IMG/VR virus record: IMGVR_UViG_3300049740_002155
Direction: 5' to 3' (one strand)
Length of the DNA: 64,000 nucleotides
DNA from: a virus
Taxonomy: Duplodnaviria > Caudoviricetes
Under the pieces are notes generated by a model. The model saw nothing but the letters and a program-made list of their open reading frames with translations, searched no databases and had not been told where the DNA came from. The position numbers and the translations under genes were made by a program. Of this stretch, positions 10,354-60,365 are shown in pieces (within the stretch, counting starts at the first letter, position 1; every line of letters starts with the position of its first letter).

Positions 10354-10944
10354 ATGAAAAAACTACCAGAGTATCTCAAAGAAGAAAAATTTAATCAAAG
10401 AAATCTTCAAACATTATTAACTGAAGGAAACTTGGAAAACAAGATTGACACTTTTAACACTATATCCTTTTCAACTGATGAGATAAATGAAGACTCACAA
10501 CTGGAAGATTTTCTTTTATTAATTCCAACCGAAAAAAGAAGACCAATCCCACCACAGGTTGAGACATATATACCAACACAGGTTACTGATTATGCACAGG
10601 ATGTAGCAACTAATCCGGACGAAGAGGTTAGTGTGATTGATGGTGTGGAGGATATACAACAAGAAATGGAAAATATGCTTACATCTGAACAGGCATTACA
10701 AGCACAAATAGACGAACTAAGCAACAGATTGGATGACGAGATTGGTAATTCTGTTAAATTAAAAGAAGATGCAGCCGAAACATTTACGGCCGCAAAAGAT
10801 ATAATAGTATCACAAAGAATTGCAGCCGGAGAAGGAAGTGCACCAAGTGAATTTTCGGATGTTTTTCCATTTCTACCAAAATCAGCAGAAGAAAGACAAA
10901 ACGAAGGAGTCGATCCATTTCCATTTATGGGTGGATATGAATAG
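10354..10944 (+). CDS. Hypothetical baseplate-region protein
   Basis: 196-aa acidic ORF with a coiled-coil segment, tightly packed in the operon. Confidence 0.7.
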   Translation: MKKLPEYLKEEKFNQRNLQTLLTEGNLENKIDTFNTISFSTDEINEDSQLEDFLLLIPTEKRRPIPPQVETYIPTQVTDYAQDVATNPDEEVSVIDGVEDIQQEMENMLTSEQALQAQIDELSNRLDDEIGNSVKLKEDAAETFTAAKDIIVSQRIAAGEGSAPSEFSDVFPFLPKSAEERQNEGVDPFPFMGGYE

Positions 10945-28753: not shown

Positions 28754-29682
28754 TGGGCATCTCTGAACAAAAACTTCTCAATCTTCTGCAAAAAGTATTA
28801 GGAACTGGAAAAATCGTCTCTAAAGACGAGGCTATGTTTATGTGTCCATTTTCACATCATAGAAAACCCAAACTTGCTATTAATTTATCTACACAAAGGT
28901 GGCAAAGTTGGATTGATACAAATGCAAAAGGCAGATCAATCTATGGTTTATTCAAAAAGATGAATGTTGCTCCACAATATCTTACGGAATTATCTAGAAT
29001 TGTAAAGATACCAAAAAACACACAACAAACCGAAGAGGAAGAGATAAAAGTTCACCTTCCATACGAATTTACATCGTTGCAGTATGACACCAAAAAAACA
29101 AGAGCATCAAAGGTTGCGTTTAATTACCTAAGACAACGAAACATATTTTCTTATGATATAGAAAGATATAATATTGGATATTGTGAAAGTGGTGATTATG
29201 CCAATAGAATCATAGTACCATCATATGATTGTGACAATAATTTAAATTATTTTATAGCAAGAGATTTTACAGGAACTGCGTATTTACGATACAAAAATCC
29301 ACCAGTCAGTAAAGATGTTGTGGTGTTTGAGAATCAAATTGATTTCTCTGAACCACTTATTTTTTGTGAGGGTGTATTTGATGCTATGGCAATTCGTAGA
29401 AATGCAATTCCACTATTGGGGAAGAATATTCCAAGTAAACTAAAAACAAAATTAGTTGAGCATGGAGTTTCTGAAGTATGTATCGTTCTTGATAATGATG
29501 CATTCAAAAACGCATTACAAATTTCCGAAACATTGATGAACGAAAATGTTCGTGTCAAATTGGTAAAAATGGGAAATGACGATGCGGCGGACATTGGGTT
29601 TAATAAAATAATTCATAAAATTAGAAATGCAGAACTTCTTGATTTTAGTGAATTGATGAAGCAAAAGTTATGCATGAACTAA
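28753..29682 (+). CDS. DNA primase (DnaG/gp61-like, TOPRIM)
   Basis: N-terminal CPF Zn-finger-like region, RIIVPSYD, CEGVFDA and LDNDA. A GTG start overlapping the upstream TAG is likely. Confidence 0.88.
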   Translation: MGISEQKLLNLLQKVLGTGKIVSKDEAMFMCPFSHHRKPKLAINLSTQRWQSWIDTNAKGRSIYGLFKKMNVAPQYLTELSRIVKIPKNTQQTEEEEIKVHLPYEFTSLQYDTKKTRASKVAFNYLRQRNIFSYDIERYNIGYCESGDYANRIIVPSYDCDNNLNYFIARDFTGTAYLRYKNPPVSKDVVVFENQIDFSEPLIFCEGVFDAMAIRRNAIPLLGKNIPSKLKTKLVEHGVSEVCIVLDNDAFKNALQISETLMNENVRVKLVKMGNDDAADIGFNKIIHKIRNAELLDFSELMKQKLCMN

Positions 29683-30374
29683 AAACAAATTTAAAGAATG
29701 TTGAAAAAGTATATCATCTCGCAGACATTCATATAAGAAACGTAAAAAGACACAATGAATATTCATTGGTATTTGAAAACTTTTACAAACAAGTAAAAGA
29801 AGATAATCTTGATAATGCGATAATTTTTATTGGTGGGGATATTGCTCATGCCAAAACAGAAATGAGTCCAGAGTTGATTCACCAAATATCTTCATTTTTA
29901 AGAGAGTGTTCTAAACTTCATCCAACGATTGTAATTGCAGGAAATCATGATTGTAATTTGAATAATCCTGATCGTCTTGACGTACTATCACCTATACTTG
30001 ATATGATGGACGATGACAATTTGTTTTATTTAAAAGATACTGGTGTATATAAATTAGGTGATGTTGCTATTGGAGTTTTTGGGATATTTGAAGAACCAGG
30101 TGAATATATCAAAGGTTCTGACATAAAAGATGATTCTATTAAAACCAAGATTGCGGTATACCACGGTGCGGTAAAAAGAAGTAGAACCGATATAGGATAT
30201 GTAGTTATGGGTGGTGATATTAATCTACCTATGTTTAATGGATATGATATTGTTATGCTTGGGGATATACACAAGTATCAAGTTTTGCAGGAGTATCAAA
30301 CTGAGCATAGATTTATTCCTGAGAGTAAGATAGATGAATATAAATTAGAAGGATGGTGCGTTAGTGATGACTAA
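29670..30374 (+). CDS. gp47: gp47/SbcD/Mre11-like nuclease, N-terminal part (split gene)
   Basis: Phosphoesterase motifs ADIH, GGDI, GNHD, YHG and LGDIH are present. The YxGS strand is missing and is found in ORF 31289. Confidence 0.85.
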   Translation: MHELKTNLKNVEKVYHLADIHIRNVKRHNEYSLVFENFYKQVKEDNLDNAIIFIGGDIAHAKTEMSPELIHQISSFLRECSKLHPTIVIAGNHDCNLNNPDRLDVLSPILDMMDDDNLFYLKDTGVYKLGDVAIGVFGIFEEPGEYIKGSDIKDDSIKTKIAVYHGAVKRSRTDIGYVVMGGDINLPMFNGYDIVMLGDIHKYQVLQEYQTEHRFIPESKIDEYKLEGWCVSDD

Positions 30375-31299
30375 TATACTCATAAGATGTAGAAACATAC
30401 AAATCGGTGATACTTTGTTTGCAAGTAGTGTTGCAAAAAAACTGAAAGAAGAAAACCCAAACTGCGTAGTTCATTATGACATTTCTTTTTTACAACCAAT
30501 TGAGTTGATGATGAACAATCCATATATCGATGGGGTGTTTTATAAAGAATCTGCGGATATTCAATATGATGTAGTTTACAATCTAATTGATACAGATTTT
30601 GTAATTGATCCATATATATCGGCCGTTTCTCAACTTCAAAGGTTGTGCAATATTAAAAACTTCGACGATACCTTTGAAATTTATACAAACCCTCACCTTG
30701 ATTATTCTATAAAGAAAAGTATTCAAGAATTAAAAAACATAAATGAATTAGAAGATGGTGTAATTTTGGTAGGATATCAAGTAGATTGGGAACGAAAAAG
30801 TTATTTGTTTACAGAAGATGAATATGAAAAAGCAGAAGGTGCAGAAGATGGATCAGGATACGGAAGTGGCAAACGAAATATTTATGATATAATAAATCCA
30901 CTAGAGGTTAACTCAGATGTTTTGTTGCTTGCACTTGGTATAGAGGAAAAAATTTCCAAGCACTATCCCGAAATAAACTCTACAAACAAATTTTCTTTTA
31001 CTGCAAGTTTAATTAAAAATTGCGACTATGTAATTGGTGCTGAAGGGTGTATTACAAATATGTCATCGGCAATTGGAACAAAAACTATTATTACAACTGA
31101 TTACATTCATCAGTTGTTCGGTCCCAAAGGAATTAACTGGTTAAAGCAAGGAAGAGATTTTTCTAATTTAGAAAAAAGAACTCCGTTTTTAGGACCTCAT
31201 GTGTATTTTCCAAATAATGGTCATGTGCATCTTAGTCCATATCTTACTGATTACGAGGTAGGGGAAGAAATTTTAGAAATTGTAACGAATGGAAGATAA
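30364..31299 (+). CDS. Glycosyltransferase family 9-like (heptosyltransferase fold)
   Basis: IGDTLFASSVAKKLKEENPNCVVHY and LIKNCDYVIGAEGCITNMSSAIGTKTI match the GT9 N- and C-terminal motifs. Confidence 0.7.
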   Translation: MMTNILIRCRNIQIGDTLFASSVAKKLKEENPNCVVHYDISFLQPIELMMNNPYIDGVFYKESADIQYDVVYNLIDTDFVIDPYISAVSQLQRLCNIKNFDDTFEIYTNPHLDYSIKKSIQELKNINELEDGVILVGYQVDWERKSYLFTEDEYEKAEGAEDGSGYGSGKRNIYDIINPLEVNSDVLLLALGIEEKISKHYPEINSTNKFSFTASLIKNCDYVIGAEGCITNMSSAIGTKTIITTDYIHQLFGPKGINWLKQGRDFSNLEKRTPFLGPHVYFPNNGHVHLSPYLTDYEVGEEILEIVTNGR

Positions 31300-33889
31300 A
31301 GAAACATACATAAAAGTAACAAGACATAATCCCGAAAAACCGGTTGTGGTTTATTCGGGTAGTATGATACAACAAAACCACGGGGAGTTGCCTTCTGGCC
31401 ATGGTTATGTTTTATGGGATTTGAAAAATAGAACACACCAACAATATGATGTACATAATGAATATGGTTATTATACGGTTACGGTTCGTGATGGAAAGTG
31501 TGTTAGTGATTTATCTAAACTACCAAATAAAGCAAGATTGCGTGTCAAGGTGTACAATACAACCGCAACTGAGACAAAGGAGATTATTGCAGAAATACGA
31601 AAGCAAACTAGTATAACGGATTTAAATGTTACACGATGTGATGCAATTTCCGAAGCAAAAAAATTTGATCGTGACAACAAATTTGATTTCGGTGACATAT
31701 CTCTTGCACAGATTCAAAATGATTTAATTGAAGATTATCTAACTCGTAATTTTGTGGTTGATGAAGAGCAAATAAAAACTGCTCTTGACATTAATAAAGA
31801 AGTAAATGAAAAGTTGGTAATTAAAGAGATACTTAAAAACTGTATTTGGAAACCAAAGAAGTTTGAGTTTGGAAATATGTTTAGTTACGGCGATGGAAAT
31901 GTAATTGACTTTTCTAATATGAAAAGTGTTATGGGGTTGTTTGCTTCTAATGCAAGTGGTAAAAGTAGTGTAATGAGTGCATTGAGTTTTTGTTTATTTG
32001 ATAAGTGTGACCGTGCGTTCAAGGCCTCACACGTATTGAATACACAAACGGATAATTTTTATTGTAAACTTAATTTTGAAATATCCAATATAAATTATTA
32101 TATTGAAAGAACTGCATCCACAAAAAAGAATGGAGATGTTACCGTTGTTGTAGATTTTTGGAAACTAGACGAAGATGGTCAGACCATTTCATTAAACGGT
32201 GAACAAAGAGCAGGAACAAACGCACTTATTCGTGATCATGTAGGTTCTTATGATGACTTTGTATTAACTACTTTGAGTTTACAAAATAACAATGCGATTT
32301 TCATAGATAAAAGTCAGAGTGAAAGAAAAGACTTGCTTGCTCAATTTATGGGAATTGATATATTTGATCAATTGCACTCTACTGCATCTGAAGATATAAA
32401 AGAAATAAATGCATTATTAAAAAGATTTAATCGTGAAAATTTTGATGAAACATTGGTAGAGGTAACAGAAAAACTAAGCAGTATATCAGAACAATATTCA
32501 GAGCAGGAAAGTAAAACTAATGTTGCACTACTAGAGCAAAAACGCATTAACAAAATTCTCTCAGATAAAAGTTCTAAATTTAAAAATTGTTCGTTTGATG
32601 AAGATAGTTCCGACATAGATAATTTGGAATTTAATAAAAAGAACTTAGAAGATAGACTTGTGGTTGCAGAAGAACAAAGAGATGTAGAATCTGCACGAAA
32701 AAAAGAACTTGTAAATAAACGAGGAGACTTATCAAAAAGAATTTCTGAGTTATCTGATGTAGAAGAAAATTATGTAAAGGTTCTTAAAATAAGAGAAGAG
32801 GTTGTAATTGTTGATAAAGACTTAGCAGTTTTGAGAACTTCGGTTAATGCAAAACTTGATAAATTAAAACATTATGATGATCACGAATATGATCCGAAAT
32901 GTTCATATTGTGTAAACAACTCTAAAAACTTAATTGAAAGTGCAGAGCAAACCAAACAAGAACTTGACAAAGATAAAGCAGCCGCAGACGAACTTGTAAA
33001 ACAAAAAGCAGTATATACAGAACAATTAAGTGAATTTGAGAATGTAGAAGATGAATATGAAGAATTAAAAGATTTGAACAACACTTTCACACAAACTTCA
33101 TTTGAAATCAACGAAGCAGATTCAAAAGTTCTTGCTTTATCTAGTATGATAGAGTCACTTGAAAAGGATATAGTAATTAATAACAAGAACATTGATTCAT
33201 ACCATGAGTGTAAAGACATAATTGAATTTAATAAAAAACTACAAGTCGAGGTAGATGCTCTTCAAGATAAGTTATTGTCTGTAAACAAAATAGCAAATGA
33301 TGAAAGTGAAAAACTTCAAACTCTTTTTGGTGAGGTAAAAATTGTTGAAAAAGAACACGAAGATATTCTTGCATCAATAGAAGAAGCAAAAAGCTACGAA
33401 AGAAAAAAACGAGGATATGAACTTTATCTTGATGCTGTAAAACGAGATGGTATATCATATGAACTTATTTCTAAAACTATTCCAAGTATTGAAAGTGAAG
33501 TAAATAATATACTTTCTCAAATCGTTGATTTCGGTATGAATCTCGAAATGGACGGAAAACATATTTACTCAAAGATTACTTACGAGGATCGTCATTGGCC
33601 ATTAGAAATGTGCAGTGGCATGGAACGATTCATAAGCAGTATTGCTATGCGTGTAGCACTTATCAATGTAAGTAGTCTTCCTCGTTCTAATTTCCTTGTT
33701 ATTGATGAAGGGTGGGGTTCATTAGACGGAGACAATATCAGCAGTGTATTTAATCTATTTACATATCTAAAAGGTCAGTTTGAGTTCATACTTGTTATAA
33801 GTCATTTGGATGTTATGAGAGATATGGTAGACGAAATTGTAGAAATTCAAAAAGAAGGTTCATTTAGTAAGATAAATTACGGAGCATAA
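31289..33889 (+). CDS. gp46: Fusion of gp47 C-terminal part with gp46/SbcC/Rad50 ATPase
   Basis: N-terminal VVYSGSMIQQNHGE..HGYVLWD; Walker A NASGKSS; Zn hook CSYC; signature SGME; Walker B VIDEG..SLD; H-loop ISH. Confidence 0.92.
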   Translation: MEDKETYIKVTRHNPEKPVVVYSGSMIQQNHGELPSGHGYVLWDLKNRTHQQYDVHNEYGYYTVTVRDGKCVSDLSKLPNKARLRVKVYNTTATETKEIIAEIRKQTSITDLNVTRCDAISEAKKFDRDNKFDFGDISLAQIQNDLIEDYLTRNFVVDEEQIKTALDINKEVNEKLVIKEILKNCIWKPKKFEFGNMFSYGDGNVIDFSNMKSVMGLFASNASGKSSVMSALSFCLFDKCDRAFKASHVLNTQTDNFYCKLNFEISNINYYIERTASTKKNGDVTVVVDFWKLDEDGQTISLNGEQRAGTNALIRDHVGSYDDFVLTTLSLQNNNAIFIDKSQSERKDLLAQFMGIDIFDQLHSTASEDIKEINALLKRFNRENFDETLVEVTEKLSSISEQYSEQESKTNVALLEQKRINKILSDKSSKFKNCSFDEDSSDIDNLEFNKKNLEDRLVVAEEQRDVESARKKELVNKRGDLSKRISELSDVEENYVKVLKIREEVVIVDKDLAVLRTSVNAKLDKLKHYDDHEYDPKCSYCVNNSKNLIESAEQTKQELDKDKAAADELVKQKAVYTEQLSEFENVEDEYEELKDLNNTFTQTSFEINEADSKVLALSSMIESLEKDIVINNKNIDSYHECKDIIEFNKKLQVEVDALQDKLLSVNKIANDESEKLQTLFGEVKIVEKEHEDILASIEEAKSYERKKRGYELYLDAVKRDGISYELISKTIPSIESEVNNILSQIVDFGMNLEMDGKHIYSKITYEDRHWPLEMCSGMERFISSIAMRVALINVSSLPRSNFLVIDEGWGSLDGDNISSVFNLFTYLKGQFEFILVISHLDVMRDMVDEIVEIQKEGSFSKINYGA

Positions 33890-33932
33890 AACATATTTAG
33901 ATATATATTTATTATGTACCTAAAATGTATTT

Positions 33933-34976
33933 ATGGAAAATTCTGAAGAAAATCAAAAAGTCCAAGAAACCCTGATTAAAGCAGGATTGCGTAAAGGATA
34001 CTTTACACTTGTAGAGGGTGTATATGACCCTGGCATTTTAAAAGCAGTATTTCTAGCAGGTGGTCCTGGTTCTGGTAAATCTGCTACTGTTGATACATTA
34101 TTCAATTTTCCACCGGATGCAAGAAACTTATCACCAAGTGGATTAAAGATTGTTAATAGTGATCCTGCATTTGAGATATTACTAAAAAAAGCAGGATACG
34201 ATTTAAATCTTGCTAAAATGGACGACAAAACCTTTAGCAAAGTAACAAGCAATGATCCAAATAGTGTTCGTTCCCGTGCAAAGAAAATAATGCTTAAACA
34301 ATTTGAGTTATTTAAAGATGGTCGTTTGGGTGTTATCGTTGATGGAACTGGTGATGATTATGCTAAAATATCAAAGCAAAAAAAAGAACTTGAAAAACTA
34401 GGATACGATTGTTATATGGTGTTTGTAAACACAACATTAGATGTGGCACAACAAAGAAACGCAATGCGTAAAAGAAAACTTCCACGAAAAATAGTAAAAG
34501 ATATTTGGACAGATGTTCAAAAAAATCTTGGTAAGTTTCAAGGTTTGTTTAAAGCAAATTTTGTTATAGTAGATAATTCAGAAGATACTCGCAGTAAAAC
34601 AAAACCTGGTAGATTAGATTTAGTTCCACGACTTATGAAAGAAGTTGCAAGATTTATATCCAAACCAATTCGTAATCCACTTGGAAAAAAGTGGATTAAA
34701 ATGATGATGGCACATGATAGGGTGAGTAAGAGTGGTGATAAAAGAAATCGTATGAACGAAGAACTGGATATGGTTTCAATGGGAGATGTAGTTCTACCTA
34801 TGGATTTGGAAAGACATTTATCTCGTTCTATATTTGTAATTAAAAAATTTAAATTAAACGAAAGACGGAATCTTGCAATTATATCAAGACTGGTTGAAAG
34901 TTTAGAGTTGGATAGAAACCAACTTAATAAATACTTCCATCAAATTAGAACATTAAAGTTCAGAGGAGAAAAATGA
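33933..34976 (+). CDS. P-loop kinase (Pnk/zeta-toxin/AAA_33-like) with C-terminal extra module
   Basis: AVFLAGGPGSGKS, VNSD, VIVDGTG and lid QRNAMRKR. The domain starts after an LVE|G site. Confidence 0.8.
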   Translation: MENSEENQKVQETLIKAGLRKGYFTLVEGVYDPGILKAVFLAGGPGSGKSATVDTLFNFPPDARNLSPSGLKIVNSDPAFEILLKKAGYDLNLAKMDDKTFSKVTSNDPNSVRSRAKKIMLKQFELFKDGRLGVIVDGTGDDYAKISKQKKELEKLGYDCYMVFVNTTLDVAQQRNAMRKRKLPRKIVKDIWTDVQKNLGKFQGLFKANFVIVDNSEDTRSKTKPGRLDLVPRLMKEVARFISKPIRNPLGKKWIKMMMAHDRVSKSGDKRNRMNEELDMVSMGDVVLPMDLERHLSRSIFVIKKFKLNERRNLAIISRLVESLELDRNQLNKYFHQIRTLKFRGEK

Positions 34977-35326
34977 TGTTTGACAAAATACTTGATGAAT
35001 TGATACTTGAAGATAAGTTGGGTGAGACATGGAGACTTGAAATGGCTCCAAATCATGCACATTATAGTTTTTCTTCATCAAAAAGTGGAAATGAAAAGTG
35101 GGCAAAACAATTGGCAATGAAACTTTTAAAAAATGAAAAAGATGATTTTAAGTTCATTGGAATTTATAGTGAGGGTGAAACTGATCTTGGTCCAATCGTT
35201 GATGGATATATATTTCATTGCACACCTGAGTACCTTGATAAAGCACCTCATTTGCATCGTGAGAAAAAAAAGGCCTGCAAACAACACATTAAAACAGGAA
35301 AAATTATTGAATATTTTGAGGACTGA
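34973..35326 (+). CDS. Hypothetical protein
   Basis: 117-aa ORF overlapping the upstream stop; N-terminus FDKILDELILE. Confidence 0.7.
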   Translation: MMFDKILDELILEDKLGETWRLEMAPNHAHYSFSSSKSGNEKWAKQLAMKLLKNEKDDFKFIGIYSEGETDLGPIVDGYIFHCTPEYLDKAPHLHREKKKACKQHIKTGKIIEYFED

Positions 35327-35328
35327 TT

Positions 35329-35844
35329 ATGAGCATAAAAGAATACAAACGATACAAAGATGATCCGTTTTGGATGAAGTCAAAATATGATGGAGTTTCG
35401 GGTGAACAAAGACTACCTGTACAACGAAGACTTCGCAAGGGTGGCATTAAGTTTAAGAAAGGTGATGAAATACTTTATTATCCAAAAGGAAAAGTGATTT
35501 TAGTCGGAAAAGAAGCAGAGCAAGCATACCGTGATTTTCAGGCAGCTGCACAGGATGAAGATTTTTATATGTCGATGTACGAGGGCAAAACTATGAATGA
35601 AATTAAAATAACAAGTAAAGAATATAAACAAGCAATTGATTTTATGTCGGATATGCATTCCAGTATATTAAAAGCAAAAGACAAAGTTATAGCATTTCTT
35701 AAAAGAAAAGGATTTGATGAAATGGCAGATGAACTTTCTCCTATGTCTAAAATTGAATTTAAGAAGTTTGTTGAAAAACGAGTGTATGAGCAAAAAATTA
35801 GAAAACAAATTCGTACAATTCTTTCTGAAATATTAAAAAAGTGA
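35329..35844 (+). CDS. Hypothetical modular protein
   Basis: 171-aa ORF with several xxE sites; ends KIRKQIRTILSEILKK. Confidence 0.7.
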   Translation: MSIKEYKRYKDDPFWMKSKYDGVSGEQRLPVQRRLRKGGIKFKKGDEILYYPKGKVILVGKEAEQAYRDFQAAAQDEDFYMSMYEGKTMNEIKITSKEYKQAIDFMSDMHSSILKAKDKVIAFLKRKGFDEMADELSPMSKIEFKKFVEKRVYEQKIRKQIRTILSEILKK

Positions 35845-38348
35845 AAACTGAACTAAGAGAATTGCTTACTCAAAATTTAACTGAGTATGTTGTGAAAGAT
35901 GTATTGCAAGAAAATTCAATACGAAAAGTTATTGGAATATATCCTGGTAGATTTCAACCAGCAGGAGTGCATCACTATAAAACATACAAATGGTTGGATG
36001 GTAAGTTTGATAAAGCATATGTAGCAACTAGTGACAAAACGGATGCCACAAAAAGTCCATTGAATTTCAAGGAAAAGAAAATGGTATGGACAAAGCATGG
36101 AGTCCGGAATGTTACAAAAGTAAAAAATCCATATGTATGTGAAGAAATTTTAAAGAAGTATGATCCAAATACAACGGCAGTCGTTTATATTTTCGGAGAA
36201 AAAGATGCGGGTAGATTAAAAACAACCAAAGCAGATGGTTCTCCTGCGTATTATCAATCATATGAAAAAAATAAAAATGATTTGAAACCATACGGTGAAC
36301 ATGGATATTTTATTGTAGCACCACACGTAAGCATTAAGGTTTTAGGAAAAGAAGTTAGTGGTACTCGTATTCGTGATTTATTAGGAAGTCCTGAACACGA
36401 CAAAATGACAAAAATTCAAGCATTTGAAGAATTGTTTGGTTGGTATGATGAAAAAATATTCAAGTACCTTACAAAGAAATTCAGCACATTGTTTGAAAAT
36501 GAAGAGTTATTTGAAAGTTTTTTGCAGAACTATCCAAACTTTACAAAATCAATTTCAACTATATTGAATGAAGTAAGCACAATAGCCGCATCGGGTATTC
36601 TGTTGGTTGATGACGGTCCGGGTTCTTTTTTCCCAAACAAAGTTTACGAAACTGAAAGTGCGGAAAGAGTTCAGCAACTTGGGTATGATCTTTTAGATTA
36701 TGTAGTGGGTAAAAACGGAGTAGGTAGAAATGCAGATTATAGAATGTGGAAAGAATACGCAGGACCCGTACCGGCAGTATCTTTTTATCCTGCAGGTGTA
36801 ACAGACGAAATAACTGCAAATAATCAAATTTCAATAGAAAAATCAAAATCAGCACACGAACAATGGGTTGAGGTAATAGATTCTGTTGCTCAAACTTCTG
36901 GATATAAATTAGTAGACTTTATAGGTTCAGACGCATCTATACGAAAAGTAGATAGGTCCGGAGAAGAAAATGTAGACGGAAATACACTGGATGTTGATGT
37001 TGATGAAAAAGAAGATAAAATAGAAAAGGGTGTTGAAGGTCAAGTAATCAAAGAAAATCAACTTCTGACGGAAGGAGGTGCAGCGGGACATATGAGCCAT
37101 CCGTTTGATGATCGTGATTTAACGTTTGGTGATTTAAAGGAAATGATTCGTAGATCACTCGCCGGAGAACTAAATGTTGAAAAAGAAGTTACTGAAAAAC
37201 TTGATGGACAAAATTTAATGTTTTCTTGGAAAGATGGTGAGTTAGTGGCTGCAAGAAATCAAGGTCATTTAAAAAATGCAGGAGCAGCCGCACCCAATGT
37301 AAAAGAATTTTCAAGTATATTTGCTGATCGTCCTGAGAATATACGTGATGCATTTGTAAGTGCAGTTGAAGATTTGGAAACTGCTATATCTGGTCTTACG
37401 GATGCTCAGAAGAATAAAGTATTTCGTGAAGGTGAACGTTTTATGAATATAGAGGTAATGACACCTGCTACACAAAATGTTATTCCTCAAAATGCAGATA
37501 TGTTGGTATTCCACGGAACACAGGCATATGATTCCGCAGGAAAACCAGTTAGTGTAGATTCCGAAGGAAATGATATAACAGGTGAACTTAAAGATTCTGC
37601 AAGAATGCTTAAAGGTATGTTGAAACAAATAAATGCAGATGTTCAAAGTCGTTATTCATTGAATGCACCGATTGTGGTGGAACTTCCTAAAAGCAAAACA
37701 TTTGGAGATTCTTATGCAAAGTATTCTGCTAAAATAGATAAACTGAAAAATAAATTTAGATTAAAAGACAACGACAAAGTAATGAAGTATCATGATTCTT
37801 GGTGGAGAGATTTACTGAACAAACAACAAACAAAAACTAAAGAGATATTTCCATCAAACGTATACGAAGCACTTATTGGTCGTTGGGCATATAATGATAA
37901 GTCTAACAAAATTACTACAATTAAAAAAGACTTATCTGATCACCCAAAGTTACTTGCGTGGGTCACTAAGTTTGAAAAAGAAGATATTACAAAACAATTT
38001 GAAGAAAATATGTGGCCATTTCAATTCATCTTTTTGAAATTGGGTGCGGAAGTATTAAAGAATGTAAAAGGATTTGTTGCGGCCGGTGGAAGTGATGATA
38101 TTGCAAAAGCACTAGATGTTCATGTTAAAACATTAGAATCAAAAAAGATTGGTTCTGTTGAATCACCTGATAAGTTTAAGAAAGACATGGAGAAGTTAAA
38201 TAAAAATCTCAATCGTCTTAATTCTATTGGTGGAAGCAACGCAATCGCACCAACAGAAGGTGTTGTATTTCAATATAAAGGTGGAACATATAAACTTACA
38301 GGTACATTTGCTCCTATAAATCAAATTATGGGTATAATGAGATTTTAA
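35841..38348 (+). CDS. Multidomain protein: HIGH-type nucleotidyltransferase, unknown module and ATP-dependent RNA-ligase-like domain
   Basis: YPGRFQPAGVHH...SGTRIR (cytidyltransferase-like); VDDGP module; TEKLDGQN...NIEV...EGVVF...YKLTG (ligase motifs I, III, IV, V). Confidence 0.75.
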   Translation: MKTELRELLTQNLTEYVVKDVLQENSIRKVIGIYPGRFQPAGVHHYKTYKWLDGKFDKAYVATSDKTDATKSPLNFKEKKMVWTKHGVRNVTKVKNPYVCEEILKKYDPNTTAVVYIFGEKDAGRLKTTKADGSPAYYQSYEKNKNDLKPYGEHGYFIVAPHVSIKVLGKEVSGTRIRDLLGSPEHDKMTKIQAFEELFGWYDEKIFKYLTKKFSTLFENEELFESFLQNYPNFTKSISTILNEVSTIAASGILLVDDGPGSFFPNKVYETESAERVQQLGYDLLDYVVGKNGVGRNADYRMWKEYAGPVPAVSFYPAGVTDEITANNQISIEKSKSAHEQWVEVIDSVAQTSGYKLVDFIGSDASIRKVDRSGEENVDGNTLDVDVDEKEDKIEKGVEGQVIKENQLLTEGGAAGHMSHPFDDRDLTFGDLKEMIRRSLAGELNVEKEVTEKLDGQNLMFSWKDGELVAARNQGHLKNAGAAAPNVKEFSSIFADRPENIRDAFVSAVEDLETAISGLTDAQKNKVFREGERFMNIEVMTPATQNVIPQNADMLVFHGTQAYDSAGKPVSVDSEGNDITGELKDSARMLKGMLKQINADVQSRYSLNAPIVVELPKSKTFGDSYAKYSAKIDKLKNKFRLKDNDKVMKYHDSWWRDLLNKQQTKTKEIFPSNVYEALIGRWAYNDKSNKITTIKKDLSDHPKLLAWVTKFEKEDITKQFEENMWPFQFIFLKLGAEVLKNVKGFVAAGGSDDIAKALDVHVKTLESKKIGSVESPDKFKKDMEKLNKNLNRLNSIGGSNAIAPTEGVVFQYKGGTYKLTGTFAPINQIMGIMRF

Positions 38349-38350
38349 TC

Positions 38351-39388
38351 ATGGAAGAGAAAAAACTTTCAATTGCAGCCAGAAGAAAACTATCAAGAGC
38401 AGCCAAACGAACTGCTAAAAAACGTTTACTTAAAAAAAAGTTATTGGCAAAACGAATGAAAACACCTGAAAAGTTAAAAGCATCTGCACAAAAGGCTGCC
38501 AAGAATGTTCTTGTAAAAAAAATTACAGGAGGGAAGTCGTATTCAGATTTAAGTATTACTCAAAAACAGACAATTGATAATAAACTAAAACCAGCAATAA
38601 TCGCAAAGGTCGCCAGAAAGATGTTACCAAAAATAAAAGCAAAAGAAAAAGAACGACTCAAACGAGTTAGAGCAAATACAAATACGGTGCAGGAAAATAA
38701 ACACGGAGTTTTGACTTTAAAAGTAAATGGATCACATCCAGAAGTATCTGCACATTATGAAGATGGGAAACTAAAACCATATATCTTTAAAACAAGAGAA
38801 GACGCAAAAAAACATTGTAAGAAAGTTGGAGGAAAACCATTTGAGTCATTTGAAACTGGTAGGTTCTATGTAGAGTTTACAAAAATAGACGGACCAATAA
38901 ATGAAAAATCTGTGTCAAAATCTCAACAAAGATTATTTGGAATGGTTCACGCATATAACAAAGGTGAGTTAAAAAAGTCTGATGTGGATGGTGGTTTATA
39001 TTCTAAGATTAAAAAAATAGCAAACGGAATGACAAAAAAGGATACAAAGAAAATGGCAAAAACTGATCACGATGATTTACCTGAAAAAGTTCCAACGAAT
39101 GAAAGTAAAGAAAACCAAGAAAATTTAAAAGATTTAAAAGCAATACTCGATGTTGCTAAAATGCTAAGTGATAAAAGTCCATATTTTAAAGGTCGTGGTA
39201 GCAAAAAAGAATATATTAAAATGCTTGTTCACAAAATACAAAAGTTGTCCGAGTCAAAAAAGCAAAAGTTATTAACCAAGATGGACGCATATAAAAAAGT
39301 TCGTAAAACAACTATGCCAAAAAGTATTCCTATGAAAAACAAAAAGGCATATGACAGAAAAGACTTTAAACGAGGTAAATATGATTAA
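38351..39388 (+). CDS. Very basic modular protein (probable internal head/DNA-binding protein)
   Basis: K/R-rich N-terminal module and an SVSKSQQRLFGMVHA module, separated by VQE/INE/TNE/LSE sites. Confidence 0.7.
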   Translation: MEEKKLSIAARRKLSRAAKRTAKKRLLKKKLLAKRMKTPEKLKASAQKAAKNVLVKKITGGKSYSDLSITQKQTIDNKLKPAIIAKVARKMLPKIKAKEKERLKRVRANTNTVQENKHGVLTLKVNGSHPEVSAHYEDGKLKPYIFKTREDAKKHCKKVGGKPFESFETGRFYVEFTKIDGPINEKSVSKSQQRLFGMVHAYNKGELKKSDVDGGLYSKIKKIANGMTKKDTKKMAKTDHDDLPEKVPTNESKENQENLKDLKAILDVAKMLSDKSPYFKGRGSKKEYIKMLVHKIQKLSESKKQKLLTKMDAYKKVRKTTMPKSIPMKNKKAYDRKDFKRGKYD

Positions 39389-39782
39389 GTTAAATGGAAA
39401 CATTTATCTAAAGGCAAACGAATTAGAAAAATATATAAACGAAGTTGCAAAACGATTTAAAACTTCGCACCGTGCAATATTACCCCAACAAATTACATAT
39501 CTTGATAAAGAATTTGTTGATAGTATAAAAGAAGAAGAGAAAAACTTGTGTTTATCTATTGTCTTTTTATATGGGTATGGAGAGGATCATGCTCCTTTAA
39601 AAAAAATAATACAAGGAATACACGACAGATTTAGAAAAGAAAATGAGTGTTGTGAAAAATTATACTTTATGCAATACGACTTAACAGATACTCAACGTAA
39701 GAAATATAGAACTCAATACGAGAACTTTTTAATAAATGTTTTTTTGAATGAGTGTATTAGAAAATTAGAAATACTATCATAG
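39381..39782 (+). CDS. Hypothetical protein
   Basis: ATG at 39381 after a GAGGT RBS, within track ORF 39351..39782. Confidence 0.65.
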   Translation: MIKLNGNIYLKANELEKYINEVAKRFKTSHRAILPQQITYLDKEFVDSIKEEEKNLCLSIVFLYGYGEDHAPLKKIIQGIHDRFRKENECCEKLYFMQYDLTDTQRKKYRTQYENFLINVFLNECIRKLEILS

Positions 39783-39785
39783 TAT

Positions 39786-39814
39786 TTGACAAAAAATAAA
39801 AAATATGGAATAAT
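39786..39814 (+). promoter_or_regulatory. Putative sigma70-type promoter
   Basis: TTGACA-17bp-AATAAT with an extended TG, upstream of 39823. Confidence 0.55.
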
Positions 39815-39822
39815 AATAGGTT

Positions 39823-40449
39823 ATGGCAAAAATGGATAAAGATGACTTGAAGTATGTGATAAAAAGATCACGTAAATTGTTTAAAGGTGAAGAACTTCCC
39901 AAAGTACATGGATACGAGGGAGAGGTTGAGGAACTTGTAATCCGACAACCAGGTGAAGTTTGGACAGATAAAGCTGGAAAAGAATGGAAACAAGTTGGTT
40001 CTAATTCAAAGGTTAGAACAGAAACTTTAATGGATAAGGTCCGAAAGTCTTTAAGAGAAGCACCGAATTGTCCTAAGAAAATGTGTACGGTTGATCCAAC
40101 TAAAAACCTAGACAAAAGAATGCTTGCTATGAAAGGTATGTGTTTTGATTGTGTTCAAGAATACGAACAAAAACTAAAGGATGAAGGTAAGTACGAAGCA
40201 TATGAAAAAAAGACTATGCTTGAAAATGAACTTAGTTTTCTGTTAGACACCAAAACAAAATTGGTGGAATCAAAAGAGCATATTACAAACGATCCCGAGT
40301 TTTTAAATGAAGATGGTTCACTTGAGCAGTGGAATCTTCCAAATAAACAGCAAGTTATGGGTGATTTGGAAAAAGATTTAGAAGAACTTGAAAATCGTTT
40401 AAAAGAAGTTGAAGAGAATTTAGAAGAATATGTGGATATGACTTTTTAA
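39823..40449 (+). CDS. Zn-finger/coiled-coil protein upstream of terminase
   Basis: CPKKMC...CFDC motif followed by a coiled coil. Confidence 0.7.
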   Translation: MAKMDKDDLKYVIKRSRKLFKGEELPKVHGYEGEVEELVIRQPGEVWTDKAGKEWKQVGSNSKVRTETLMDKVRKSLREAPNCPKKMCTVDPTKNLDKRMLAMKGMCFDCVQEYEQKLKDEGKYEAYEKKTMLENELSFLLDTKTKLVESKEHITNDPEFLNEDGSLEQWNLPNKQQVMGDLEKDLEELENRLKEVEENLEEYVDMTF

Positions 40450-40478
40450 AAGTTTCAAGGTATCCTTGAAACTTTTTT
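40448..40478 (+). terminator. Rho-independent terminator
   Basis: AAAAGTTTCAAGG-TAT-CCTTGAAACTTTT followed by a T-tract. Confidence 0.8.
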
Positions 40479-40516
40479 ATATTATAGAAAATTAAATACA
40501 TATATATTTATTCTTA

Positions 40517-47121: not shown

Positions 47122-47751
47122 ATGGCAAAAAAAATAATAGTATCTACAATGCCCTTTGAGTTTAGTCCTGAGCAGATAAGTGAAAGCATAGAAAAAAATT
47201 CAGGTAAACTATTGGTCAGAGGTATTCTGCAAAAAGCAACTGAGCAAAACCAAAACGGAAGAGTTTATAGTCGTGCTTTGCTTGAACGTGAAGCAGGTAA
47301 ATATCAAGAAATGATAAACGACAGACGAGCATTGGGAGAGTTAGATCACCCGGAGAGTAGTGTAGTCAATTTACAAAATGTAAGTCACAATGTTACAAAG
47401 ATGTGGTGGGATGGTGATAATCTTTTGGGTGATGTAGAAATACTTGGAACTCCTGCTGGTAATATTTTAAAAGAACTTTTCAAGGGTGGAATTACACTTG
47501 GAATCAGTTCACGTGGAATGGGAACAACCCGTGAGCACGAAGGAAAGACAATGGTAAACGATGACTTTGAATTGGTCGCATTTGATTTTGTCAGTAATCC
47601 TTCCACCAGAGGTGCATTTTTAGAACCGGTTAAATTAAACGAATCAGTTACACATGAGACTAAAGTTGTAACAGAAGGCCGAGTTTGCACAAAATACTGC
47701 AAACTTGAAGGAATAATCCACGAAATACTTAATGAAGTAGGAGATATGTAA
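47122..47751 (+). CDS. gp21: Prohead protease
   Basis: NQNGRVY, ALGELDHP, LGISSRGMG and FDFVSNPST are T4 gp21-family motifs. Confidence 0.95.
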   Translation: MAKKIIVSTMPFEFSPEQISESIEKNSGKLLVRGILQKATEQNQNGRVYSRALLEREAGKYQEMINDRRALGELDHPESSVVNLQNVSHNVTKMWWDGDNLLGDVEILGTPAGNILKELFKGGITLGISSRGMGTTREHEGKTMVNDDFELVAFDFVSNPSTRGAFLEPVKLNESVTHETKVVTEGRVCTKYCKLEGIIHEILNEVGDM

Positions 47752-49892: not shown

Positions 49893-51230
49893 ATGAGTAA
49901 ATTACTTAAAGAAGCTATTGCTGATGCGAAAGCAGTTCGTGAGACAGCCCTTGCCAACGCAAGACTTGCTCTTGAAGAAGCATTCGCACCACGTTTGCAA
50001 AGTATGCTTACCAAGAAACTCAGAGAAGAAGAATTAGAAGGCGAAGAATCAGAAGTTGAAGTTTCTGATGAAGTTGAAGAAGGTTCTTACTCCGAAGAGG
50101 ACGAGGAAGTTGCAGTTGAAGACGATGAAGTAGAAGAAGGTTCATATGCAGAAGATGACGAAGAGGCACCAGTTGAAGAACCGGCTGCTGAAGAGGCACC
50201 TGTTGAAGAACCAGCTGCTGAAGAAGAACCAGCTGCCGAAGAAGCACCTGCGGACGAAGAAGAAGAAGTCGCTGAAGACGATCTTGAAGCAGAACTATCT
50301 GCTGATGAAGACGAAGAGTCAGTTGAAGAAGACGCATTCGATTTAGATTCCATCATCAAGGAACTTGAAGATGAAATGGCAATCGAAGACGAAAACGAAG
50401 AAGAATTAGAAGAGCAATCCGACTCATCTGAATTAGGTACAGGTGGTGAAGAACACGTCAACGTTGCTGATAGTGACGATGAAGATCTTCCCGATGACAC
50501 CGAAGTTCAATCTGCACCAGTAGGTGAAGAAGACGATGAAATGCCAAAAGTTGCTGACATCGATGAAGATATTGATATCGAAATCGTTGACGAAGAAGCA
50601 CCTGCAGGTGACGAATCTGATGAACCAACTGCAACAGAGTCCGATGAAGAACTTGCTTTTCCAACTAACGAAGCAGAAGGATGCAACCAAGGTGGTGACA
50701 TCGGAGAAGACGATGAAGAAATCAACTTGGAAGAAATTCTCAAAGAACTTGAGGACGAGTCTGCTGAATTGGAATCTGACGAAGAGGAATCTTCAGAAGA
50801 AATCGCAGAATTTAAATCTGCAAACGAAAAGCTTCAAAAAGAAAATGATGAATACCGCAAAGTTTACAAATTTTTGCGAGGTAAGTTAAATGAAGTAAAT
50901 CTTCTTAATGCTAAATTGCTTTATACAAATAAGTTGTTTAAGGCACACGTATTAAATGAAGATCAAAAGTTAAAAGTCGTAGAAAGTTTTGACCTTACGA
51001 AGAATGTTCGTGAAGCAAAACTCGTTTATGCAACACTTGGTGAGAGTTTTCGAACTCAAGCAACACCTCCTGTAAAATCTGCTCCTAAAAAAGCAAAAAT
51101 TCAAAAGAATCCTCTTACAGAAGGAATTGCTTCAAAACCAATTAAATCAACAAAACCTTCCAAGAAGATTTTATCTGAAGGCAATGATCTTGCTGACAGA
51201 TTTAAGAAACTTGCAGGTATACAATCATAA
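49893..51230 (+). CDS. gp22: Prohead core scaffolding protein (gp22-like)
   Basis: MSKLLKEAIADAKAVRETALANA, a very acidic centre and a C-terminal coiled coil EVNLLNAKLLY; lies directly upstream of the MCP. Confidence 0.85.
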   Translation: MSKLLKEAIADAKAVRETALANARLALEEAFAPRLQSMLTKKLREEELEGEESEVEVSDEVEEGSYSEEDEEVAVEDDEVEEGSYAEDDEEAPVEEPAAEEAPVEEPAAEEEPAAEEAPADEEEEVAEDDLEAELSADEDEESVEEDAFDLDSIIKELEDEMAIEDENEEELEEQSDSSELGTGGEEHVNVADSDDEDLPDDTEVQSAPVGEEDDEMPKVADIDEDIDIEIVDEEAPAGDESDEPTATESDEELAFPTNEAEGCNQGGDIGEDDEEINLEEILKELEDESAELESDEEESSEEIAEFKSANEKLQKENDEYRKVYKFLRGKLNEVNLLNAKLLYTNKLFKAHVLNEDQKLKVVESFDLTKNVREAKLVYATLGESFRTQATPPVKSAPKKAKIQKNPLTEGIASKPIKSTKPSKKILSEGNDLADRFKKLAGIQS

Positions 51231-51261: not shown

Positions 51262-52704
51262 ATGAGCGAAATAGGCAAATTATTACAAGAAAGTCAAAAT
51301 CCTCAAGAACGTCTTATGGCTGAAACCCGTGGTTTGGTATCAAAATGGGAAAAGACAGGACTTCTCGAAGGAATTTCGACTGACACAGAAAAGAGTGGTA
51401 TGTCCATTCTTTTAGAAAACCAAGCAAAGCAGTTGATCGACGAAGCATCACGCACCGGTACAGGTGGAGGTAACGAAGAATGGAGTGGAGTAGCACTTCC
51501 TCTCGTTCGACGTGTGTTCGCAGAAATCGCATCAAAGGAATTCGTTTCCGTCCAACCAATGAATCTTCCATCAGGATTGATTTTCTACTTAGACTTTAAG
51601 TATGGAACAGACCAATCACTTCAAGGTAAAGGTGGAAGTCTTTTCGGTGGATCAGCAGACGCAAAACTCGGTTCAACCGACAAAGCAGAAGGTGGTCTAT
51701 ACGGTGCAGGACGCCATGGTTACTCAATCAATGACAAGCAAGTTACTGTTGAAGTTGGAGACGCACTTCCATCTGATGCAGACTTAGAAAGCATTCGTGC
51801 ATTCCAAGTTGACGGTAATGCACTTGTTCTTGATGCAGATAACAAAATGACACAAGCAGGTACACTTCAGTATCACGCACAAACAACTGCGGACAATCGT
51901 GGTGACTTTGAAGATAATCTTGGAAAGTCAGCAGAAGTTGCAGGTGCTGATCCAGAAGTTCCTTCTGATTCTGGTCTTCAAAAGGACATCGGAATTCCTG
52001 AAGTAAACTTGGAACTCAAAAGTGAACCAATCGTTGCAAAGACACGCAAGTTGAAAGCAGTTTGGACACCAGAGTTGGCACAAGACTTAAACGCATACCA
52101 TAGTATTGACGCAGAAGCAGAATTGACTTCTCTTCTTTCCGAGTACGTTTCAATGGAAATTGATTTGGAAATTCTTGATATGCTTATCGTTAACGCACAC
52201 ACAGACGGTGGTACATTCAATGCGGCTGCTGATCTCCAAGGTGGTGAGACTCAAGGAACATTGTTCCAAAAACTCGGCACAAAGATTCAAAAGGTGAGTA
52301 ACACAATTCATCAATTGACTCTTCGTGGTGGTGCAAACTTCTTGGTTTGTTCCCCACAAGTTGCTACAGTTCTTGAAAGTATCCCAGGATATGCAGCTGA
52401 CACAGACGGAAATCAGTCTCAGTTCGCAATGGGTGTTACCAAGGTTGGTGCATTAAACAATCGTTTCCAAGTCTACAAGAACCCATACATGACAAGTGGT
52501 GACGTTCTTATCGGATTCCGTGGAACAAACTTCCTCGAAACAGGTGCAGTTTATGCTCCGTACATTCCGTTGATCCAAACTCCTTTGGTATACGATCCGG
52601 TCAACTTTACTCCACGTCGTGGTGTAATGACTCGTTATGCTAAGAAGATGGTTCGTCCTGAATTCTACGGAAAAATCTCTGTTACCGGTACAGCAGATCT
52701 TTAA
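51262..52704 (+). CDS. gp23: Major capsid protein
   Basis: KWEKTGLLEG, LPLVRRVF, VSVQPMNLPSGLIFYLD, KTRKLKAVWTPELAQDLNAYH, YAPYIPL and GVMTRYA. Confidence 0.97.
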   Translation: MSEIGKLLQESQNPQERLMAETRGLVSKWEKTGLLEGISTDTEKSGMSILLENQAKQLIDEASRTGTGGGNEEWSGVALPLVRRVFAEIASKEFVSVQPMNLPSGLIFYLDFKYGTDQSLQGKGGSLFGGSADAKLGSTDKAEGGLYGAGRHGYSINDKQVTVEVGDALPSDADLESIRAFQVDGNALVLDADNKMTQAGTLQYHAQTTADNRGDFEDNLGKSAEVAGADPEVPSDSGLQKDIGIPEVNLELKSEPIVAKTRKLKAVWTPELAQDLNAYHSIDAEAELTSLLSEYVSMEIDLEILDMLIVNAHTDGGTFNAAADLQGGETQGTLFQKLGTKIQKVSNTIHQLTLRGGANFLVCSPQVATVLESIPGYAADTDGNQSQFAMGVTKVGALNNRFQVYKNPYMTSGDVLIGFRGTNFLETGAVYAPYIPLIQTPLVYDPVNFTPRRGVMTRYAKKMVRPEFYGKISVTGTADL

Positions 52705-58954: not shown

Positions 58955-58977
58955 GTGTAGATATATATTTATTAGAA

Positions 58978-60342: not shown

Positions 60343-60365
60343 AGCCAATATATATTTATGATAAC

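Follow-up and report, generated by a model that had tools for sequence, protein, structure and literature searches.

A predicted kinase, nucleotidyltransferase and ligase-like cassette beside the packaging genes of a marine T4-like phage and its possible delivery in the virion

The stretch of IMG/VR virus record IMGVR_UViG_3300049740_002155 analysed here (the window, 64,000 nucleotides) carries on its plus strand, between positions 33933 and 38348, a cassette of predicted enzymes: a P-loop kinase of 347 amino acids (aa) and an 835-aa modular protein in which a nucleotidyltransferase of the HIGH superfamily is followed by a ligase-like domain. The best overall explanation, to which we assign a probability of roughly 0.42, is that these are enzymes of the head module which would be targeted by N-terminal leaders, cut at sites of the pattern [LI]xE and delivered to the host for RNA repair. 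In concept, this is the T4 system of capsid targeting sequences (CTS) and internal proteins extended to a new cargo and to a polyprotein format. The source phage is, to judge from its genes, a distant marine myophage of the T4-like type. The full record is a single contig of 161,235 bp (proteome of 51,475 aa) and is about 80% complete, so that absences from it are weak evidence. Translation confirmed the open reading frames (ORFs) and the peptides which an earlier sequence-only reading had quoted for this region, all of them on the plus strand.

Predicted folds and fusion partners

The kinase gene (33933-34976, plus strand) encodes a 28-aa leader, a P-loop domain of the Zeta_toxin/AAA_33 clan (which also comprises Pnk and KTI12) and a C-terminal extension of about 95 aa. 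Two Pfam models recognise it, Zeta_toxin with 42.4 bits (cut-off 22.3) and AAA_33 with 27.8 bits (cut-off 27), as does a PHROG annotated as polynucleotide kinase (E 1.9e-4). In an alignment of 20 relatives the invariant residues are E28, G29, D32, P33, the Walker A P-loop GGPGSGKS (34059-34082), S76-D77, D137-G-T-G and R175-N176..R179..R181, which may represent the constellation of a T4 Pnk-like enzyme (P-loop, catalytic Asp and RNxxR arginine cluster). Comparison of the kinase profile with the PDB produced only P-loop-level or non-significant matches, among them the kinase domain of CthPnkp (E 0.3-0.8). Residues 250-347 have no family match in Pfam, PHROGs or NCBIfam, and no HAD-type 3'-phosphatase was found there or elsewhere in the unit. 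The analogy with T4 Pnk drawn in the sequence-only reading is compatible with the clan and the PHROG match, and in its full form it is weakened by the lack of a 3'-phosphatase or cyclic phosphodiesterase domain in the cassette. A role as zeta toxin of a toxin-antitoxin pair was set aside as unlikely, the family being viral only and syntenic with the nucleotidyltransferase and ligase genes; the ORFs adjoining the kinase, which are relevant to an epsilon-type antitoxin, have no family matches.

The 835-aa protein (35841-38348, plus strand, GTG start) has 2135 homologues and is composed of a leader, the nucleotidyltransferase, a middle module and the ligase-like domain. A sequence search against the PDB gave no meaningful match and an NCBIfam scan gave sub-threshold matches only. 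Because the sequence libraries offered nothing beyond sub-threshold hints, the protein was folded as two halves with AlphaFold2 (AF2), using alignments of diverged homologues. The nucleotidyltransferase domain (residues 25-244; 35913-36572) was modelled over residues 29-215 with a predicted local distance difference test score (pLDDT) above 90. Its 80 Foldseek matches with E<=1e-3 are headed by the NadM structure 2qjo (E 1.8e-5), together with PPAT (2e-5) and NadD (about 2e-5), at a probability of 1.00; the three match equally well and do not single out a substrate. The Pfam model CTP_transf_like (PF01467) stays below its threshold in the window (13.9 bits against a cut-off of 21, E 0.064) and reaches it in 21 of 33 long polyproteins among the relatives (best E 1.7e-10). 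The domain shares with NadM, PPAT (CoaD) and NadD the Rossmann fold, the GRFQP signature and SGTxxR. The first motif is GRFQPAGVHH (35946-35975; G36, R37, F38, P40 and H45 invariant), a variant of GRFQPFHxGH, and the second is SGTRIR (36357-36374, within VSGTRIR; G174, T175 and R178 invariant), the counterpart of ISxTxxR. Unlike those enzymes, the window domain is fused to a ligase fold and has GxHH for HxGH. The proposal of a HIGH nucleotidyltransferase stands for the fold and SGTxxR and has to be amended for the HxGH motif, which is altered in the clade of the window; the canonical GRFQPFHKGH is kept in many relatives.

These matches also bear on an alternative reading, NAD+ salvage, according to which the kinase would be a nicotinamide-riboside kinase (NRK), the HIGH domain an NMN adenylyltransferase (NMNAT) and the ligase-like domain a user or sensor of NAD+, all directed against NAD+-depleting defences. 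The best structural match, NadM, is a bifunctional NMNAT/ADP-ribose pyrophosphatase, the GRFQPF..H signature is similar to that of NadM-type NMNAT, and one relative (P0119) has a Nudix domain C-terminal of the nucleotidyltransferase, as in NadM. In addition, phage pathways of NAD+ reconstitution are known (Osterman 2024, cited in PMC12801897). On the other hand, the scores of PPAT and NadD are just as good, HxGH has no first His in the clade of the window, the clan of the kinase is not that of NRK, and both the ligase fold and the fusions to CCA-adding and HD domains are left unexplained. The rebuilding of NAD+, as suggested in the sequence-only reading, was not upheld: neither Nampt nor NAPRTase is found in the 161-kb, incomplete record, and the motif is altered. 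NAD+ salvage is accordingly regarded as improbable.

Between the two enzymatic domains lies a 'VDDGP...VSFxPAG' module with an acidic linker (residues 245-411; 36573-37073). Residues 245-404 have a pLDDT of 30-60 and no confident fold, and the module gave no usable match in the ESM Atlas; in relative P0168 it stands after a kinase.

The ligase-like domain (37074-38345, plus strand) is predicted to adopt an Rnl-type covalent nucleotidyltransferase (ligase) fold, with a helical insert of about 180 aa. Its AF2 model (residues 405-835) has a pLDDT of 89.4 and a predicted template modelling score (pTM) of 0.86, and all 45 of the best 45 Foldseek rows from the PDB are RNA or DNA ligases or capping enzymes, T4 Rnl1 being the best (E 1.6e-3). 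VIA-align gave NgrRnl a Z of 8.4 (root-mean-square deviation, rmsd, 4.0 over 186 residues) and T4 Rnl1 a Z of 7.8 (rmsd 3.8, 183 residues), with Z of 7.7-7.8 for T4 Rnl1, Trl1-LIG and T4 Rnl2; the alignments cover about 185 residues and are interrupted by the helical insert. Sequence identity to the solved ligases is 11-16%, and the Pfam models remain below threshold (RNA_ligase PF09414 at 15.9 bits, E 0.015, and DNA_ligase_aden at 13.2 bits, both with a cut-off of 27). Motif I, EKLDG (residues 452-456; 37194-37208), contains the candidate adenylated Lys453; K453, D455 and G456 (K49, D51 and G52 in domain numbering) do not vary among 43 diverged sequences and lie in a strand-loop-strand at domain positions 47-60. 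The other motifs were placed provisionally, by conservation and strand positions: E538 (strand 129-136) and F557-H558 (strand 150-159), invariant or nearly so, are candidates for motif III/IIIa, and E806-G807 (strand 403-408) with K813/K818 (strand 411-415) for motif IV/V, where motif V differs from the classic KxK. This last stretch, EGVVFQYKGGTYK (38256-38294), has G403 and K414 invariant and E402 nearly so in domain numbering. The match to the KxDG ligase superfamily of the Rnl type is distant, and the fold assignment, as modelled, appears sound.

Relatives of the ligase-like domain form 1821 representative clusters (50% identity), found on more than 500 viral contigs. The domain begins with the motif GGAxGHMxHPFDD and occupies the C-terminus in every case, whether it stands alone or closes a protein of up to 1930 aa. 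Pfam and PHROG matches for the kinase, and AF2 models with Foldseek (and VIA-align) matches for the other two, support the three enzyme folds of the sequence-only reading, and these identities can be given with high confidence. The relatives provide a further argument. For instance, relative P0357 combines a HIGH nucleotidyltransferase, DUF5661, an AAA_33/KTI12-like kinase, an HD domain, a CCA-adding head with RNA-binding domain and the ligase-like domain. CCA-adding modules are present in 6 and HD domains in 4 of 149 representatives, and the kinase type of the window is fused in others. This set of partners points to the repair of tRNA ends and gives independent support to the idea of RNA repair already put forward in the sequence-only reading, a predicted theme that we consider somewhat favoured by the sequences.

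Two additional modules were noticed in these proteins. In some close relatives (P0019, P0049 and P0376, 78-82% identical) the nucleotidyltransferase is preceded by an additional module of about 320 aa, located at the N-terminus and containing 'GKNRDRNY', for which Pfam gives no match. A small module with the motif 'I-P-V-x-V-G-D-T-V-x-G-K-F-K-N-K', probably a small beta-barrel, is the first after the leader in many polyproteins (P0245, P0246, P0256) and a free-standing gene of 170 aa in Pelagibacter phage HTVC008M (6480-6992).

Junctions, leaders and gene position

The three sites of prohead-protease type which the sequence-only reading had placed ahead of the catalytic domains are all present and are conserved in relatives, and a fourth has been added. 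With the slash marking the proposed cut, they are TLVE/G at the end of the kinase leader (33933-34016; codon of E28 at 34014-34016; TLVE/GVYDPG), VLQE/N at the end of the leader of the 835-aa protein (codon of E24 at 35910-35912; VLQE/NSIRK), the added ILNE/V directly before the middle module (36561-36572), and LLTE/GG immediately before the ligase-like domain (37062-37073; LLTE/GGAAGH at 37062-37091). The segment ENQLLTEGGAAG at the LLTE junction has a pLDDT below 50. In the kinase family the junction has Glu at P1 in 111 of 111 relatives and Leu or Ile at P3 in 106 of them; short members of 250 aa have leaders of 9-13 aa, such as MKLIDIINE/GVYDPG. Nucleotidyltransferase domains, whether N-terminal or internal, are preceded by an [LI]xE which ends 10-14 residues before the glycine of GRFxP in 57 of 89 cases, and middle modules by one located 7-24 residues before xDDGP in 139 of 144. 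At the ligase junction (136 representatives at 50% identity) P4 is Leu in 68%, P3 is Leu or Ile in 131, and P1 is mostly Glu (106), otherwise chiefly Cys (15) or Met (13). Overall, its placement is far from random: the pattern is conserved at 64-97% on the boundaries of four unrelated types of module, in several hundred divergent relatives, whereas its background rate is 0.0095 per residue. That one tripeptide marks the edges of modules so different is more readily accounted for by a common processing signal than by a separate structural requirement of each.

The leaders are consistent with such a signal. Stand-alone ligase-like proteins carry leaders of 8-45 aa ending in [LI]xE/GG, and leaders of the form MNxLTxWLVxPFLxE precede whichever domain comes first throughout the family: nucleotidyltransferase, kinase or the small GDT module. 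The leader of the 835-aa protein, MKTELRELLTQNLTE/YVVKDVLQE/N (24 aa; 35841-35912), was modelled as a helix over residues 2-22 (pLDDT about 66), separate from the Rossmann fold. It contains the pattern [ST]EL[KR]x[LI][LI], defined post hoc on data already seen, which occurs four times in the whole proteome of the record, every time at an N-terminus; shuffled sequences gave 0.09 occurrences anywhere and none at N-termini. Besides the 835-aa protein (35841), the carriers are two small ORFs that flank the prohead protease (45550 and 48937) and one near baseplate genes (6344). The protease itself, the proposed processing enzyme, is of the gp21 type (47122-47751, plus strand; Pfam Peptidase_S77, E 1.2e-27; phrog_207, E 7e-54). 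The major capsid protein of the gp23 type (51262-52704, plus strand; Pfam Gp23, E 1.2e-82) has LIDE/A (E61) shortly N-terminal of its Gp23 domain, which starts at residue 72; by likeness to T4, this is the position where a maturation cut would be expected.

Side observations were made at the junctions. In relative P0104 a module with a ROS/MucR zinc finger and an HNH-like endonuclease is inserted in frame exactly at LLTE/GG, with the junction doubled (LLTEGGAY ... LLIEGGAAGH); relative P0285 has an HNH-like stretch just 5' of an internal nucleotidyltransferase junction, and one long polyprotein contains an intein. Mobile elements seem to target the module boundaries of these polyproteins. Elsewhere in the window, a 196-aa ORF of the baseplate/tail region (10354-10944) has the N-terminus MKKLPEYLKE/EKFNQRNLQTLLTE/GN, with the same LLTE/G string as at the ligase junction.

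The position of the cassette is equally constant. Among 80 related IMG/VR loci, in most of which the ligase-like domain is merely 41-47% identical, 79 keep the order [kinase]-nucleotidyltransferase-ligase-(o208)-TerL-portal-o289-...-S77 protease on one strand, the protease being found in every locus long enough to reach its position. Microcystis phage Mel-JY01 has the same gene order. The linkage of the cassette to the late/structural module is considered probable. It is also an argument for another reading, in which the cassette serves DNA packaging: the kinase, together with the ligase-like domain, would repair nicks or ends, by healing and sealing, in the replicated concatemer or in DNA already packaged. 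Such a role would account for the strict linkage to the terminase genes, the cassette invariably adjoining o208-TerL-portal on the same strand; moreover, a search of the 161-kb record revealed no ATP-dependent DNA ligase (PF01068), the ligase-like domain being encoded by its sole ligase-superfamily gene, and DNA ligases are among the structural matches. Nevertheless, the best of these matches are RNA ligases (NgrRnl, T4 Rnl1, Trl1 and Rnl2), the OB or DNA-binding domain typical of DNA ligases is absent, the fusion partners of the relatives are tRNA enzymes (CCA-adding, KTI12-like kinase, HD), and a DNA ligase could lie in the missing part of the record. We give a role in DNA packaging little credence.

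Proposed delivery in the virion or action in the cytoplasm

The proposed delivery of the enzymes within the virion has precedents in well-studied systems. T4 internal proteins enter the head by means of a CTS of 10-19 aa which is removed by gp21, positions 4 and 7 governing targeting and positions 8 and 10 processing (PMC9026906); the T4 sequence is MKTYQEFIAE (PMC8442874). Proteases like gp21 cut after Glu, and enzymes are packaged in T4, phiKZ and SPN3US (PMC5694885). In T4-like cyanophages, genes for DUF6267 proteins adjoin 'cytidyltransferase' genes. Their nucleotidyltransferases belong to the family found in the window (profile against Syn9 gp184, hhalign E 2.3e-5; common stretch SxxxDxxKxPLxFxEK) and have N-termini close to the T4 CTS: MKNFSSFLTE/A, MKKFSAFLSE/A, MKLFNQFFKE/A and MRFRQFIIE/A. 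Mass spectrometry of CsCl-purified virions revealed S-CREM2 gp154 as well as S-SZBM1_140 and the adjacent 139 (PMC10665884, PMC9146016), and the authors of the S-CREM2 work consider such enzymes frequent in cyanophage virions (PMC10665884). No literature on DUF6267 or Mel-JY01 was found, nor any data on when the cyanophage orthologues are expressed.

The cyanophage and pelagiphage cluster (Syn9 gp183-185, P-HM1 161-163, S-SZBM1 139-141, HTVC008M) resembles the cassette in that a HIGH nucleotidyltransferase of the same family adjoins a KxDG protein. In HTVC008M the neighbours are a DUF6267 protein with the KxDG-like motif VKWDG, the small module, a kinase of the same family as that of the window (ILKE/GLYDPG) and a HIGH nucleotidyltransferase. 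Structural matches in BFVD tie the ligase-like domain to proteins of this cluster; it is probably kin to DUF6267, on the basis of these matches, common motifs and synteny. Comparison by hhalign was not significant, either with the HTVC008M protein alone (probability 0.4%) or with an alignment of four sequences (E 0.048), and no DUF6267 gene is found in the 161-kb record.

As regards T4 itself, the internal proteins IPI-III and Alt offer a close parallel: a gp21-type S77 protease, short leaders ending in [LI]xE, basic proteins in the unit and, in Alt, a precedent for an enzyme as cargo. The differences are that the leader in the window departs from MKTYQEFIAE and that the proposed cargo is a polyprotein of about 95 kDa with internal cuts. 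To our knowledge, a polyprotein cargo cut internally into several enzymes has not been described for T4. The ejection proteins of phiKZ and SPN3US, processed by S80 proteases, are comparable in that head enzymes such as the virion RNA polymerase (vRNAP) are cut after Glu, often at several sites per propeptide (PMC5694885). They differ in their A/S/G-x-E motifs and in belonging to another phage lineage. We know of no kinase, nucleotidyltransferase or ligase cargo in these phages. Regarding the chemistry, T4 Pnk with Rnl1 and the fungal and plant Trl1 (LIG-KIN-CPD) likewise pair a P-loop kinase with a KxDG fold of the Rnl type, T4 Rnl1 and Trl1-LIG rank high in the structural comparison, and HD and CCA-adding modules accompany the domain in relatives of the window. 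Unlike these healing and sealing systems, the window has no 3'-phosphatase or CPD, and its ligase-like domain has the large helical insert, the unique GGAxGHMxHPFDD motif and scores below the Pfam threshold.

In the proposed mechanism, the leader would bring each protein into the prohead core, where the [LI]xE before each module would be the cut site of the gp21-type S77 protease of the phage, and maturation would free the separate enzymes. These would be carried inside the capsid and reach the host cell along with the phage DNA. There, broken RNA, probably tRNA, would be healed and sealed: the kinase would phosphorylate 5'-OH ends and the ligase-like domain, adenylylated on Lys453, would seal the break.

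Several observations weigh against this explanation. Counted over entire proteins, [LI]xE occurs at chance (835-aa protein, 9 sites with 8.0 expected; kinase, 3 sites with 2.8 expected). The share of Cys and Met at P1 of the ligase junction, 21% of the representatives, is ill-suited to a Glu-specific site. The residues that follow the Glu are also invariant (GVxDP; GGAxGHMxHPFDD), so that the Glu could be part of the N-terminal motif of each domain. The leader of the 835-aa protein does not follow the CTS pattern of T4 and that of the kinase is different again; with 24 aa (LQE) and 28 aa (LVE), both are longer than the 10-19 aa of T4, except for a site at 15 aa (LTE) in the former. Authors of the S-CREM2 study caution about co-purification (PMC10665884). 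In the cyanophages and HTVC008M the genes of the related cluster are separate and stand beside replication genes, and their DUF6267 proteins have no leaders. As for the enzymes, the ligase-like domain resembles ligases only modestly in structure (Z about 8; best Foldseek E 1.6e-3), the HIGH motif departs from the canonical form (P-A-G-V-H-H, hence GxHH), and the cassette lacks a recognisable domain for 3'-end healing. Finally, the upstream motif TATATATTTAT, treated below as promoter-like, leaves no more than 5-6 nt between its end and several ATGs, an unusual spacing for a promoter.

Many of these points would fit a rival reading in which the same enzymes are cytoplasmic: the 835-aa protein, produced late in infection, would remain uncut and process RNA or nucleotides as a multidomain enzyme, none of it would be packaged, and the [LI]xE sites would be structural N-terminal caps or hinges of modules that recombine. 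It is favoured by the invariant residues after the Glu, the Cys and Met at P1, the chance frequency of the pattern, the replication genes beside the related cluster and the co-purification allowed for by the mass spectrometry authors. T4 Pnk and Rnl1 are likewise cytoplasmic enzymes. Conversely, needs specific to each fold hardly explain the same tripeptide at the edges of four unrelated modules. Furthermore, neither the leaders nor the LLTE segment belongs to a confidently modelled fold, the leader motif is common to proteins of the prohead-core region, the gene position is fixed at the head of the packaging module, and members of the family have CTS-like leaders and were detected in virions. 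Purely cytoplasmic action is a substantial possibility, though we would not call it likely. Packaging and cleavage of the cassette proteins form a coherent reading, with indirect support from several independent sides and with some indications to the contrary, and may be about as probable as their opposite; the entire chain of late expression, packaging, cleavage, injection and RNA repair is on present evidence rather unlikely to hold in all its steps.

If the junctions are true protease sites, this would be the first T4-type head protease to release several enzymes from one packaged polyprotein. The proposed delivery, if true, would constitute the first virion-delivered RNA-repair kit, explain the recurring 'cytidylyltransferases' of cyanophage virion proteomes and suggest a testable way for marine phages to forestall immunity directed at tRNA. 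The wider proposition concerns marine T4-like phages as a large class. They would load modular polyproteins into the prohead through an N-terminal targeting leader, have them cut at [LI]xE by the prohead protease into kinase, HIGH nucleotidyltransferase and RNA ligase (in relatives also HD phosphoesterase and CCA-adding enzyme), and inject this tRNA/RNA-repair kit against tRNA-cleaving defences before their own genes are expressed; as it stands, this is speculative and doubtful. The ligase-like family, for which there is no Pfam model or dedicated study, is constantly found at the front of the packaging module in abundant ocean phages. Even without packaging, its fusion partners (kinase, HD, CCA-adding) would give a large block of viral dark matter a likely, predicted role in RNA repair.

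Probable transcription unit and remaining features

The motif TATATATTTAT (33902-33912, plus strand) lies 31 nt 5' of the ATG of the kinase and is also found 5' of TerL and of tail and head genes. The window contains five exact copies, all on the plus strand, intergenic and 5' of ORFs: those of the kinase (33902) and TerL (40501) and ORFs at 49893, 58978 and 60366. If one mismatch is allowed, there are 38 matches against 6.2 expected. The motif is a candidate promoter-like element, common to the kinase operon and to structural genes. It was further observed that the copies at 40501-40511, 58962-58972 and 60349-60359 end 5-6 nt 5' of the ATG of TerL and of two tail-region ORFs. If the motif were a promoter, the mRNAs of these genes would be almost leaderless; alternatively, it could serve as an element for the start of translation. 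The T4 late promoter TATAAATA was rejected as the relevant motif, being found mostly on the minus strand and nowhere 5' of the kinase operon; it is mildly enriched in the window (18 occurrences against 8.3 expected). Sites resembling sigma70 promoters occur in the region about as often as chance predicts. One near-consensus site of this type, TTGACA-17-AATAAT (11/12, with an extended -10 TG), is present at 39786-39814, just 5' of the ORF at 39823-40449.

Downstream of this ORF there is a hairpin terminator with a stem of 13 bp and a T-run (40448-40476, plus strand). A hairpin of this strength indicates that the transcription unit probably extends from 33902 to 40476. The single late-motif operon of the sequence-only reading can be retained as a probable unit with a promoter-like motif common to structural genes, its end moved from 38348 to 40476.

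The unit encodes further proteins on the plus strand. The 117-aa ORF (34973-35326) has the leader MMFDKILDELILE/D and no family match in Pfam, PHROGs or NCBIfam; in one relative (P0164, 484 aa) its module is joined to the kinase through ...LLAE/GLGLEW. The next, a basic protein of 171 aa (35329-35844; isoelectric point, pI, 9.6), is syntenic in close relatives and gave neither a significant family in the same three libraries nor a usable match in the ESM Atlas. Beyond the 835-aa protein, the 345-aa DUF3008 protein (38351-39388) is very basic (pI 10.2, 27.5% Lys plus Arg) and is also syntenic in close relatives. T4 internal proteins are likewise highly basic, and the DUF3008 protein is, by this analogy, a candidate DNA-associated internal head protein. 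Finally, the acidic ORF of 208 aa (o208; 39823-40449) stands directly 5' of TerL in 58 of the 80 related loci and is possibly the small terminase.

The window as a whole is AT-rich (about 33% GC) and has its coding sequence nearly all on the plus strand. Its head and tail gene set includes the gp23 capsid protein, the gp21-type protease, a gp17-like TerL, a portal and a tail sheath. In the TerL comparison, the nearest cultured phages are Microcystis phage Mel-JY01 and Flavobacterium phage immuto (52-53% identity), followed by the cyanophage terminases with about 31%. No tRNA genes were found in the 64-kb window. Directly 5' of the kinase operon, at 29670-33889, a glycosyltransferase-like ORF splits a gene similar to Mre11/SbcD, the C-terminal part of which is joined to an ORF similar to SbcC/Rad50.

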